A stretch of 64,000 nt of DNA from Solirubrobacterales bacterium (GTDB lineage Bacteria > Bacillota > Syntrophomonadia > Syntrophomonadales > DTU052): NCBI GenBank assembly GCA_050258755.1, contig JBLMZI010000012.1, forward strand, positions 38,768-102,767. The letters are read 5' to 3'. The notes beneath the pieces are model-generated. The model did not search any database. It saw nothing but the letters and a program-made list of their open reading frames with translations, and was not told where the DNA came from. A program made the position numbers and the translations under genes. Of the stretch, positions 57,529 through 58,960 are shown piece after piece. Within the stretch, counting starts at the first letter, position 1, and every line of letters begins with the position of its first letter.

Positions 57529-58617
57529 ATGACGGAGCAGGGTCAGGGTTCGGCGTGCTGCGGGAGTCAAATCGGGCCGCAGGTACCGCAAAGCCATGAA
57601 CCGTGGATGATCGGGGAAATCAATACCGCTGGCGGAACCGTCGCGGTTGCCGCGACCCGGCTGACCGTTCGGGACCGGCTTGGGAGTTTTGGGGCGCGCT
57701 GGGGCGTCAACCGGATGAACTACACGGTTGGCCCAGGTCTTTATGCGGTTGGCAGCCCTGATGAAACGATGCCGGTGTTTGTTACCGCGAATTACAAGAT
57801 GAGTTTTGACCACCTGCGGCGGTCGTTGGATGGCATGAACGCCTGGATTCTGGTGCTGGATACCTTCGGGATCAATGTCTGGTGCGCGGCCGGCAAGGGG
57901 ACTTTCGGAACCGAAGAATTGGTCCGCCGCATTCAGCTCACCGGACTTGCTGAAGTGGTTTCCCACCGCAGCATCATCGTACCGCAGCTTGGCGCGCCGG
58001 GCGTCGCCGCGCACTTGGTGAAAGCCCGGACCGGTTTCCGAGTGGTGTACGGACCGGTTCGCGCCGCCGATATTCCAGCCTATATGGCAAACAAAATGAA
58101 AGCGAGTCCCGAGATGCGGCGGGTTCATTTCGGGGTACTGGACCGGCTGGTCCTGGTCCCGATCGAACTGACTGCGAGCCTAAAACCGATTCTGATCATC
58201 GGAATTGCCTTGGTATTGCTGCGTCTTGCCGGCGTGCAGGGGATAACCTGGGGAGCGGTCCTAACCTACCTGGGCGCTTTCCTTGCGGGTGCAGCCGTGA
58301 CTCCGATTCTACTGCCCTGGATTCCGGGCCGGCCGTTTGCCTTGAAAGGCTGGCTGGTTGGGTTGGGGTGGGCGATCATGGCACTCTATCTGCGGGGTTT
58401 GCTCCCGGACGGGAATGTTTTTGAAACGCTCCCGGCATTATTGATTGTGCCTGCGATCTCGGCTTACCTGGCCATGAATTTCACCGGGGCGTCTACCTAT
58501 ACATCGCCCTCGGGTGTGAAAAAGGAAATGAGATACGCGCTGCCGGTGATCGGCGCGTCTGGCGCGGCCGGCCTGATTCTAATCGTGGTTTGGATCGTGG
58601 CGAGCGGAGGGATGTAA
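57529..58617 (+). CDS. hgcA: Mercury-methylation corrinoid protein HgcA
   Basis: Cap-helix signature GINVWCAAGKGTFG and a C-terminal TM bundle with LLPWIPGRPFALKGW. SD GGAGG upstream. Confidence 0.9.
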   Translation: MTEQGQGSACCGSQIGPQVPQSHEPWMIGEINTAGGTVAVAATRLTVRDRLGSFGARWGVNRMNYTVGPGLYAVGSPDETMPVFVTANYKMSFDHLRRSLDGMNAWILVLDTFGINVWCAAGKGTFGTEELVRRIQLTGLAEVVSHRSIIVPQLGAPGVAAHLVKARTGFRVVYGPVRAADIPAYMANKMKASPEMRRVHFGVLDRLVLVPIELTASLKPILIIGIALVLLRLAGVQGITWGAVLTYLGAFLAGAAVTPILLPWIPGRPFALKGWLVGLGWAIMALYLRGLLPDGNVFETLPALLIVPAISAYLAMNFTGASTYTSPSGVKKEMRYALPVIGASGAAGLILIVVWIVASGGM

Positions 58618-58618
58618 A

Positions 58619-58960
58619 ATGCGCAAACATCGCTATTTAAGCAATGTCAGCACCCTGAAACTGGTGCCGGAACAATGCACCGGATGCGGTTTCTGCCTGG
58701 ATGTATGTCCCCACGAGGTGTTGGCCCTGGCGGACCGGACGGTTATCATCCGCGATGCCGATGCCTGTATGGAGTGCGGAGCCTGTGCGAAAAACTGCCC
58801 GTTTGGCGCGATTGTGGTCGAGGCTGGCGTCGGGTGTGCTTCGGCCATTCTACGCGGGGTGTTGACCGGCGGCCCGCCAAGCTGCGGGTGTGCGGCGACC
58901 GGCTGCGGAGCGCCAAGCGGCTGCAGTACGCCGATCACCGATGGGCAGCAAAACGAATGA
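58619..58960 (+). CDS. hgcB: Mercury-methylation ferredoxin HgcB (2x[4Fe-4S])
   Basis: CTGCGFCLDVCP and CMECGACAKNCP motifs, a conserved GVGCA cysteine and a Cys-rich tail SCGCAATGCGAPSGC. It starts 1 nt after the hgcA stop. Confidence 0.85.
   Translation: MRKHRYLSNVSTLKLVPEQCTGCGFCLDVCPHEVLALADRTVIIRDADACMECGACAKNCPFGAIVVEAGVGCASAILRGVLTGGPPSCGCAATGCGAPSGCSTPITDGQQNE

Follow-up and report, generated by a model that had tools for sequence, protein, structure and literature searches.

Methylmercury production has an accepted genetic marker, the hgcAB gene pair, and each correctly identified pair enlarges the catalogue of potential methylators. The locus considered here, at positions 57529–58960 of a 64-kb stretch of DNA analysed as a whole (hereafter, the window), had been described from its letters as an hgcAB pair whose HgcB lacks the adjacent C-terminal cysteines. 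This raises two questions: whether these genes are true orthologues of hgcA and hgcB, and whether the deviating HgcB tail has any bearing on function.

The answer to the first question is almost certainly yes. The genes hgcA (57529–58617, 362 aa) and hgcB (58619–58960, 113 aa) were two separate, unfused ORFs on the forward strand, as were the other stranded features located below. In the HMM search that the preliminary description had proposed, both NCBIfam models were exceeded: HgcA, a corrinoid methyltransferase, scored 454 bits on the equivalog model NF040863 (cutoff 275, E = 2.8e-136), and HgcB, a 2[4Fe-4S] ferredoxin, scored 123.8 bits on NF040864 (cutoff 99, E = 1.8e-36). Such E-values place both matches far beyond chance. 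The pair also agreed with published high-stringency motif criteria. [quoted passage not shown] Because the equivalog cutoffs and these motifs were passed, the label “predicted methylator” follows normal practice, and the source organism may be regarded, from its sequence, as a credible predicted methylator in terms of potential only. The earlier claims of an hgcAB pair and, as a prediction, of a methylmercury producer were thus supported. The operon type is ordinary and already labelled hgcAB in public databases, the sole oddity being the HgcB tail; the exact HgcA and HgcB proteins are present in NCBI under those names. The nearest homologues of the pair were only ~65% identical, and the best 80 hgcA loci listed in a search of genome contigs were all at most 57% identical.

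The architecture of HgcA was that expected of the family. The cap-helix motif GINVWCAAGKG occupied residues 114–124 (57868–57900), with the Cys119 codon at 57883–57885, and residues N116 to G124 were invariant in an alignment of 24 HgcA homologues (alignment A1). Cys119 corresponds to Cys93, the Co-thiolate ligand, of HgcA from strain ND132. A CFeSP-like corrinoid domain was detected at residues 66–185 (PF03599, 47.4 bits), and the AlphaFold2 (AF2) model (mean pLDDT 82) comprised a Rossmann-like beta/alpha domain and five long helices (residues 203–233, 241–264, 270–288, 297–321 and 327–358), all hydrophobic on the Kyte-Doolittle scale. The AF2 secondary structure and the hydropathy scan together delimited a transmembrane domain at residues 203–358 (58135–58602). 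Both the cap-helix motif and the C-terminal transmembrane bundle noticed earlier were therefore recovered.

A feature of HgcA overlooked in the preliminary description is a vicinal cysteine pair, Cys10-Cys11, in the N-terminal sequence SACCGS (codons at 57556–57561). This type of motif is already in the literature: the pair satisfies the N-terminal CC/CU motif of HgcA described by Haft 2022 (bioRxiv 10.1101/2022.07.06.499078). An N-terminal CC was found in 96/120 HgcA homologues, and in the AF2 model the pair lies in a disordered N-terminus (residues 1–16, pLDDT < 50).

HgcB likewise retained the family core. The two CxxCxxCxxxCP cluster motifs and the GVGCA cysteine reported earlier were located at 58676–58801 (CTGCGFCLDVCP, residues 20–31; CMECGACAKNCP, residues 50–61) and at Cys73 (codon 58835–58837), respectively. 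Cys73 occupied an invariant alignment column in the same register as in ND132 and lay ~12 residues past the second cluster motif, as expected of this strictly conserved HgcB cysteine. In the AF2 model of HgcB, a confident ferredoxin core was followed by a helix at residues 74–83 and a disordered tail at residues 90–113 (pLDDT < 50), in agreement with the published HgcB model (PMC7305189).

The layout of the locus pointed to an autonomous unit. As had been noted, hgcB starts 1 nt after the hgcA stop: the TAA at 58615–58617 and the ATG at 58619 are separated by the single base 58618, which suggests translational coupling. For each gene there is a separate ribosome-binding site: GGAGG at 57517–57521, which precedes the hgcA ATG by 7 nt, and GGAGGG at 58606–58611, inside the 3′ end of hgcA. 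Terminator-like hairpins flank the pair on both sides. The upstream one (57340–57365, inverted repeat I2), with a 10-bp stem of 8 GC pairs followed by the T-run TTCTTTGGTG, sits after an fdhD-like gene and parts that gene from hgcAB. The downstream one (58970–58988) is a GC-rich hairpin with an 8-bp stem of 7 GC pairs, a loop of 3 and a T-rich tail; it lies between hgcB and a convergent histidine-kinase gene, whose ORF ends at 58989, and from this arrangement is likely a bidirectional terminator. A possible sigma-70-type promoter, read by eye, occurs at 57441–57470 (TTGCAT, an 18-nt spacer and TATAAT, with the −10 element at 57465–57470). A consensus promoter scan did not report this site upstream of hgcA, because its −35 hexamer matches the consensus at 3/6 positions only. 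Between the putative −10 element and the hgcA ribosome-binding site lies a perfect 18-bp palindrome, ATTTTGATGCATCAAAAT (57479–57496; repeat I4, 9 + 9 nt, 100% complementary, no spacer, not assigned to a strand), which occurs only once in the window; for its 16-mer with up to 3 mismatches, 0.5 chance occurrences are expected in the window. The palindrome is a candidate operator; since it was not found at the best 80 other hgcA loci listed, no regulatory claim is made for it.

The second question concerns the HgcB tail, PPSCGCAATGCGAPSGCSTPITDGQQNE (58874–58960), which is followed by the stop TGA and then directly by TAA. The description of this tail as CxC...C...C without an adjacent pair was accurate: its cysteines are Cys89, Cys91, Cys96 and Cys102, and it ends in ...SGC102-S103-TPITDGQQNE. 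In an alignment of HgcB sequences (alignment A2), Cys102 fell in the column of the first cysteine of the customary terminal Cys-Cys, and Ser103 took the second position. The 10-residue extension after Ser103 was seen in the window HgcB alone. Cys89 and Cys91 form the conserved CxC, in which C89 is invariant and C91 at least 90% conserved, and Cys96 is extra. The tail is real and not an assembly artefact or the product of a frameshift, because two run-level assemblies made independently of each other (SRR24085919 and SRR24085920) carry the DNA of window positions 57329–58995 without any difference; the same protein also exists as an NCBI MAG entry.

Three kinds of evidence suggested that this tail is of minor consequence. 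First, the terminal CC was absent from 14/116 top hits, 8/73 GTDB species-representative loci and 7/64 credible 50%-cluster representatives, i.e., from about 11–12% of HgcB relatives (~1 in 9), which indicates that a terminal CC does not define the family. Second, ND132 single mutants C94A or C95A methylate normally, and the double mutant alone loses ~95% of activity (Cooper 2020, PMC7305189). Variation among HgcB tails in length and in number of cysteines is already on record, and the four tail cysteines of the window protein supply the at least one tail Cys that mutagenesis has shown to be needed for function (PMC7305189). Judging from the alignment, the tail amounts to a naturally occurring Cys-Ser counterpart of the Cys-Cys ending, accompanied by three other cysteines. 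Third, given four tail thiols (C89, C91, C96 and C102) and the N-terminal Cys-Cys of HgcA, the variant is expected to be near-neutral and the organism a potential methylator. The tail change, a minority state, is thus unlikely to abolish function. The initial emphasis on the missing CC was therefore justified as to its absence but not as to its importance, since ~11–12% of relatives also lack it and single-Cys mutants are active. Such a tail could have arisen by one base change (TGY to AGY) converting the terminal Cys-Cys to Cys-Ser, after which the frame would run 10 residues further; with the gain of one extra Cys (C96), it would represent a lineage-specific minor variant. Taken as a whole, the statement that hgcA–hgcB is a self-contained, translationally coupled operon coding a canonical HgcAB mercury methyltransferase with a near-neutral tail is the account that we consider probable.

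The strongest alternative is that the tail is functionally meaningful, with the lost pair and the 10-residue extension altering Hg(II) capture and thereby changing the methylation rate or substrate preference. Under this alternative, capture might proceed via C89/C91 with C96/C102, or might have moved to Cys10-Cys11 of HgcA. The CC is kept in about 88% of relatives, normally as the very last dipeptide (median residues past the last Cys = 0), and an extension of at least 8 Cys-free residues past the last Cys was found in only 3/116; both the extra Cys96 and such a rare extension occur in the window HgcB. This majority state and the rarity of long extensions are clear signs of purifying selection acting on the customary tail, so that the window tail may perform less well. 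Furthermore, CC-less HgcB paired with an N-terminal-CC HgcA in 8/9 cases versus 39/63 (odds ratio 4.9), as would be expected if one subunit compensated for the other; however, this association was not significant (Fisher p = 0.15), and subunit compensation was rejected on this basis. The full activity of the single-Cys ND132 mutants also argues against a meaningful change, as do the predicted disorder, which implies that tail geometry is only loosely constrained, and the existence of relatives (L015 and L068) whose tails have only one Cys and whose genes stop at TAA. Overall, we regard a meaningful tail as unlikely. The same low weight attaches to the more specific proposal that, in the window HgcB, the terminal Cys-Cys exists naturally in a single-thiol form and Hg(II) is handed off by C89/C91 and C96/C102 or by HgcA Cys10-Cys11. 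If that proposal were true and HgcB active, the vicinal pair would be dispensable in a wild-type protein, and an Hg-capturing dithiol could reside on either subunit.

It was separately considered whether relatives ending in ...PSCG might be unrecognised selenoproteins. A read-through analysis did not bear this out: L015 and L068 end in TAA and thus have true short tails. Among the ...PSCG-ending relatives, L029 alone ends in TGA, and its case is ambiguous.

Less probable again, and in our view improbable, is that HgcB is degenerating or of low activity under relaxed selection, such that the organism would make little or no methylmercury. Its tail does show two departures from the majority state, and short in-frame tail repeats (cgccaagc at 58875 and 58911; cggctgc at 58900 and 58918) suggest slippage. 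However, both ORFs are intact and keep all invariant columns of both families, the HMM scores lie well above the cutoffs, nothing in the ribosome-binding sites, the coupling or the terminators is broken, and the sequence is identical in two assemblies.

The reading of the pair as a non-methylating paralogue, of the fused HgcAB-like or the CFeSP type, which the preliminary description had named as one outcome that would overturn its claim, is effectively refuted. The HgcA corrinoid domain is indeed homologous to the CFeSP large subunit: HgcA matched the PDB CFeSP large subunits 2h9a, 4c1n and 4djd with E = 1e-10 to 8e-8 (2h9a, 1.3e-10), and a PDB search with HgcA and HgcB returned only CFeSP and generic ferredoxins, with no solved HgcAB structure among the matches. 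Nevertheless, compared with the 454 bits (cutoff 275) on the HgcA model, HgcA scored 70.8 bits on the CFeSP large (gamma) subunit model (AcsC/CdhE, NF003195; cutoff 306), and the two window ORFs scored 197 and 55 bits on the fused HgcAB-like model NF043039 (cutoff 285). [quoted passage not shown] The CFeSP large subunit is a soluble protein composed of an N-terminal [4Fe-4S] domain, a TIM barrel and a corrinoid domain, of which only the C-terminal corrinoid domain aligned with HgcA (profile positions 322–448 of 450); the N-terminal Fe-S and TIM-barrel regions are absent from HgcA.

Equally remote is a reading of the hgcB TGA as selenocysteine, giving a C-terminal ...QQNE-U that would replace the missing thiol with the downstream hairpin as a SECIS element: the TGA is followed immediately by TAA, 10 nt past the end of hgcB begins a GC-rich hairpin whose loop is GUU, and HgcA and some HgcB can be selenoproteins, with a family ending in Sec known (Haft 2022, bioRxiv 10.1101/2022.07.06.499078), but the known HgcB Sec site is residue 73 rather than the C-terminus (Haft 2022), roughly one in three hgcB genes of relatives also stops at TGA, no Cys precedes the TGA codon and a CU motif is hence absent, the extension occurs in the window HgcB only so that nothing shows its conservation, and the hairpin, with its T-rich tail between convergent genes, reads as a terminator. 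A tRNA-Sec was not found within the 64-kb window.

Returning to the canonical HgcAB with a near-neutral tail, a mechanism can be proposed by homology to ND132. The HgcA corrinoid domain would bind cobalamin, with the thiolate of Cys119 ligating the cobalt, and the five-helix C-terminal domain would hold the protein in the membrane. S-adenosylmethionine (SAM) would methylate HgcA, and the methyl group would then be passed to Hg(II); SAM has been identified as the methyl donor and Co-S(Cys) ligation has been confirmed (PMC11588087). By analogy, the window HgcA is thus predicted to bind cobalamin and to methylate Hg(II) in a SAM-dependent manner. The two [4Fe-4S] clusters of HgcB would give electrons to regenerate Co(I), and its Cys73, together with the cysteines of the flexible tail, would deliver Hg(II) and carry methylmercury away.

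The pair adds a divergent Bacillota-like lineage to the known hgcAB. The window as a whole looks Bacillota-like, which makes the database label “Solirubrobacterales” doubtful, and this taxonomic label of the organism is probably wrong. The tail variant is of modest importance as a natural construct for asking if HgcB can do without its terminal Cys-Cys, and it could also be used to probe the role of the HgcA N-terminal Cys-Cys in mercury handling. The practice of hgcAB surveys is unchanged, because published screening criteria ignore the HgcB tail.

Among known systems, the genetically and biochemically characterised reference is the pair of ND132 (Pseudodesulfovibrio mercurii = Desulfovibrio desulfuricans; DND132_1056/1057), in which hgcA and hgcB are adjacent as in the window. 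Using ND132 sequences from the supplementary alignment of Cooper 2020 (trimmed to ND132 columns), identity was 45% over 324 aa for HgcA and 54% over residues 1–78 for HgcB, the latter gapless and with every Cys from C20 to C73 bearing the same number in both. Both HgcA proteins have the NVWCAAGK cap helix with the Co-ligand Cys, the CFeSP-like corrinoid domain and the five-helix membrane domain, and both HgcB proteins have two CxxCxxCxxxCP motifs, the Cys73 register and a flexible Cys-bearing tail. In contrast, ND132 HgcB is 95 aa long, ends in ...IDAACC and is without the proximal CxC, whereas the window HgcB is 113 aa long with C89-x-C91, C96 and C102-Ser103 plus 10 residues. In ND132 HgcA, the N-terminal motif is Cys-Sec (PCUGP) and precedes the annotated start (Haft 2022, bioRxiv 10.1101/2022.07.06.499078), unlike the Cys-Cys of the window HgcA, which lies inside the called ORF. 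The nearest named relatives are Bacillota-type HgcAB from MAGs and isolates of Syntrophomonadaceae, Desulfitobacterium and Desulfosporosinus (HgcA 53–60%, HgcB 60–70% identical). Their HgcB proteins have in common with the window the proximal CxC of ...TG(G/T)EPSC(G/D)C and a short Gly/Ser-rich tail, but almost all end in ...GCC and a stop, whereas the window protein has GCS followed by TPITDGQQNE and the extra Cys96. The CC-less relatives, such as P0003 (...CGCSESGAASTCGN), L010 (...CDCSGGESC), L003 (...SGGCR) and L015/L068 (...EPTCG), resemble the window in having a canonical core with Cys73, one or more tail cysteines and an adjoining canonical hgcA. Each of them has its own tail solution, and none shares the C-x-C-x4-C-x5-C-S pattern or the extension of the window HgcB.

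The hgcA (57529–58617, + strand) and hgcB (58619–58960, + strand) genes were identified from the ORF list and the raw sequence as ORFs of 362 and 113 aa, respectively. The features attributed to the pair in the preliminary description were all found. HgcA contained the cap-helix motif FGINVWCAAGKGTFG, which includes Cys119, and a hydrophobic C-terminal half in which the AlphaFold2 model placed five long helices (residues 203–358), in line with the transmembrane bundle described. HgcB contained the ferredoxin motifs CTGCGFCLDVCP and CMECGACAKNCP and the conserved cysteine of GVGC73A, and its ATG was separated by one spacer base from the TAA stop codon of hgcA (58615–58617). 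The HgcB tail, PPSCGCAATGCGAPSGCSTPITDGQQNE, carried cysteines at positions 89, 91, 96 and 102, none of them adjacent. The best-supported reading is a canonical, probably functional HgcAB with a near-neutral, lineage-specific variant of the HgcB tail. The observation itself holds, and the biology behind it is ordinary.

The C-terminal alignment proposed in that description, performed with 36 relatives, located the change at the site of the usual vicinal Cys-Cys (CC). C89 was invariant and C91 at least 90% conserved, forming the proximal ...EPSC(G/D)C motif, and C102 aligned with the first cysteine of the ...GCC that usually ends the tail; the window has Ser at the next position (codons TGC AGT, one base from Cys). 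Two independent run-level assemblies (SRR24085919 and SRR24085920) carried exactly the same operon DNA (57329–58995), and an assembly artefact in the tail was therefore ruled out. CC was lacking in 14 of 116 classifiable top hits from 90% clusters (12%; 102 with CC), in 8 of 73 GTDB species-representative loci (11%; 65 with CC), and in 7 of 64 credible 50%-cluster representatives (57 with CC), all seven retaining at least two tail cysteines; 12 further sequences with Cys-free tails and the appearance of frameshifted junk were excluded from the last sample. The tail state of the window is therefore one that recurs in a minority of relatives and is not singular.

The tail also had an extra thiol, Cys96, and a ten-residue extension (TPITDGQQNE) where relatives stop; at least eight residues beyond the last cysteine occurred in 3 of the 116 top hits, making this rarer than CC absence. 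A functionally altered HgcB tail is the sole alternative with an appreciable probability. In the published mutagenesis, C73A abolished methylation, C94A or C95A singly had no effect, and the double mutant lost approximately 95% of activity (Cooper et al. 2020, PMC7305189); from such results, the tail version in the window is predicted to be tolerated. According to Haft 2022 (bioRxiv 10.1101/2022.07.06.499078), ‘nearly every’ HgcB ends in CC. Tail variability is already known, with orthologues differing in tail length and cysteine number (PMC7305189).

A tail terminated by Sec is unlikely, although hgcB closes with two tandem stop codons, TGA-TAA (58958 onward), and a GC-rich hairpin whose loop is GUU (58970–58988), considered here as a SECIS candidate, begins 10 nt further on. 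This hairpin separates hgcB from a convergent gene for a 7TMR-DISM histidine kinase. Sec has been reported at position 73 in 6.4% of HgcB (Haft 2022, bioRxiv 10.1101/2022.07.06.499078). A short HgcB class (87–91 aa) was also recurrent among relatives, ending just after the first cysteine of the proximal CxC (...EPTCG or ...APSCG; loci L015, L068, L029 and L070; proteins P0016, P0034, P0086, P0108 and P0116). HgcB at L015 and L068 has a single tail cysteine (...EPTCG) and is truly short, since the stop codon is TAA; at L029 it ends at TGA, which could be a Sec site. Short in-frame direct repeats were observed in the tail DNA of the window (58875–58925): cgccaagc occurs at 58875 and again at 58911, a distance of 36 nt, where it encodes PPS and APS, respectively, and cggctgc at 58900 and again at 58918, a distance of 18 nt, where both copies encode GC. 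These repeats suggest that the tail grew through small duplications.

Neither a decaying hgcB nor a paralogous pair has any appreciable probability: in the HMM search proposed earlier, each protein exceeded its NCBIfam equivalog cutoff (HgcA_corrinoid, 454 bits versus 275; HgcB_ferredoxin, 123.8 bits versus 99), and the models for fused HgcAB_like (197 and 55 bits versus 285) and the CFeSP gamma subunit (70.8 bits versus 306) failed. Pfam returned only generic CdhD and Fer4 domains. A PDB search found no HgcAB structure, and the HgcA corrinoid domain matched CFeSP large subunits there (~1e-10). Both exact proteins are named in NCBI, as ‘mercury methylation corrinoid protein HgcA’ and ‘mercury methylation ferredoxin HgcB’, and the next-best homologues share only ca. 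65% identity. The pair, already annotated publicly, adds a new and divergent member to a well-known family.

The preliminary description overlooked Cys10-Cys11 in the HgcA N-terminus (GSACCGSQIGP; codons 57556–57561), a region disordered in the AlphaFold2 model. This is the Cys version of a published motif, PCUGP (Cys-Sec) or CC, carried on an N-terminal extension of HgcA (Haft 2022, bioRxiv 10.1101/2022.07.06.499078), and N-terminal CC was present in 96 of 120 HgcA homologues. The HgcAB pair therefore does have a vicinal dithiol, on HgcA rather than HgcB. Among loci L003–L082, N-terminal CC was found in 8 of 9 HgcA partners of CC-less HgcB versus 39 of 63 partners of CC-bearing HgcB (odds ratio 4.9, Fisher p = 0.15; small sample), which is suggestive at most of a pairing between the two states.

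Directly upstream of hgcAB, 12 kb (45541–57333) are taken up by a run of genes for sulfur trafficking and the methionine pathway, which encode NifU, NifS, homocysteine synthase, a ThiF-family protein, a PLP-dependent (PALP) enzyme, MetA, MnmA, a second cysteine desulfurase, ThiF/MoeB, ThiI and FdhD. Methionine is the precursor of SAM, by now established as the methyl donor for HgcA; a terminator nevertheless stands between this cluster and hgcAB, the terminator-like hairpin at 57340–57365 closing the fdhD-like gene. The AT-rich intergenic region upstream of hgcA contained a putative promoter, TTGCAT-18-TATAAT (−10 at 57465–57470), read by eye and absent from the scan output. A perfect 18-bp palindrome, ATTTTGATGCATCAAAAT (57479–57496), followed the TATAAT box and preceded the ribosome-binding site of hgcA (GGAGG, 7 nt before the ATG); its half-sites resemble TTGAT/ATCAA with a spacing of 2 nt instead of 4. 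The palindrome occurred once in the window, was not found upstream of hgcA among the 80 other loci listed, and could be a lineage-specific operator. The GGAGGG site for hgcB lies within the 3′ end of hgcA. Unlike some lineages, in which an ArsR-like regulator lies beside hgcAB (PMC7438021), the window had none adjacent to the pair.

Elsewhere, a P1B-type heavy-metal ATPase with two HMA domains, ca. 13 kb from hgcAB, adjoined a DUF4118 histidine kinase and a sigma-54-dependent response regulator (39596–44525, − strand). Six tRNA genes were tightly clustered at 18154–18733 (+ strand; Gly-TCC, Arg-TCT, His-GTG, Gln-CTG, Gln-TTG and Lys-TTT), and an envelope or exopolysaccharide cluster (22844–30781) encoded, among others, two membrane proteins related to PTPS, one of them 855 aa long and on the − strand, and a glycosyltransferase of the XrtG-associated type (TIGR03111, 394 bits versus cutoff 364).

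The source MAG is labelled ‘Solirubrobacterales bacterium’ in NCBI. The GC content of the window was 49%–60%, and Solirubrobacterales typically have a G+C content of ca. 70%. The window encoded an SLH-domain S-layer protein, two sigma-54 activators and the glycosyltransferase associated with XrtG, a Gram-positive exosortase; sigma-54 is generally not known from Actinobacteria. The best named relatives of MnmA belonged to Syntrophomonadaceae, Peptococcaceae, Desulfitobacteriia, Syntrophobotulus and Dehalobacter, with no Actinomycetota among the top 120 matches listed besides the window protein itself. The label does not fit the window (markers at 2389–7128, 28098–29510, 36705–39005, 39596–40948 and 52157–53269); more likely, the source is a Bacillota-like anaerobe or the contig was mis-binned. 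Labels just as odd (‘Candidatus Saccharibacteria’ and ‘Acidobacteriota’) are attached to the two closest relatives of MnmA and HgcA, suggesting that a group of MAGs from one lineage has been mislabelled.

Purified HgcAB was shown to contain cobalamin and two [4Fe-4S] clusters, to take the methyl group from SAM and to have a Co–S(Cys) bond (Zheng et al. 2024, PMC11588087). Against the characterised pair of ND132 (sequences from the Cooper 2020 supplement), HgcA shared 45% identity over 324 residues and HgcB 54% over residues 1–78; the latter alignment was ungapped, and the cysteine numbering from C20 to C73 is therefore the same. The AlphaFold2 models comprised, for HgcA (pLDDT 82), a beta/alpha corrinoid domain preceding the helices and, for HgcB, a ferredoxin core (pLDDT > 90), a helix (74–83) starting at Cys73 and a disordered tail (90–113), and both are consistent with the HgcAB model published earlier (PMC7305189).
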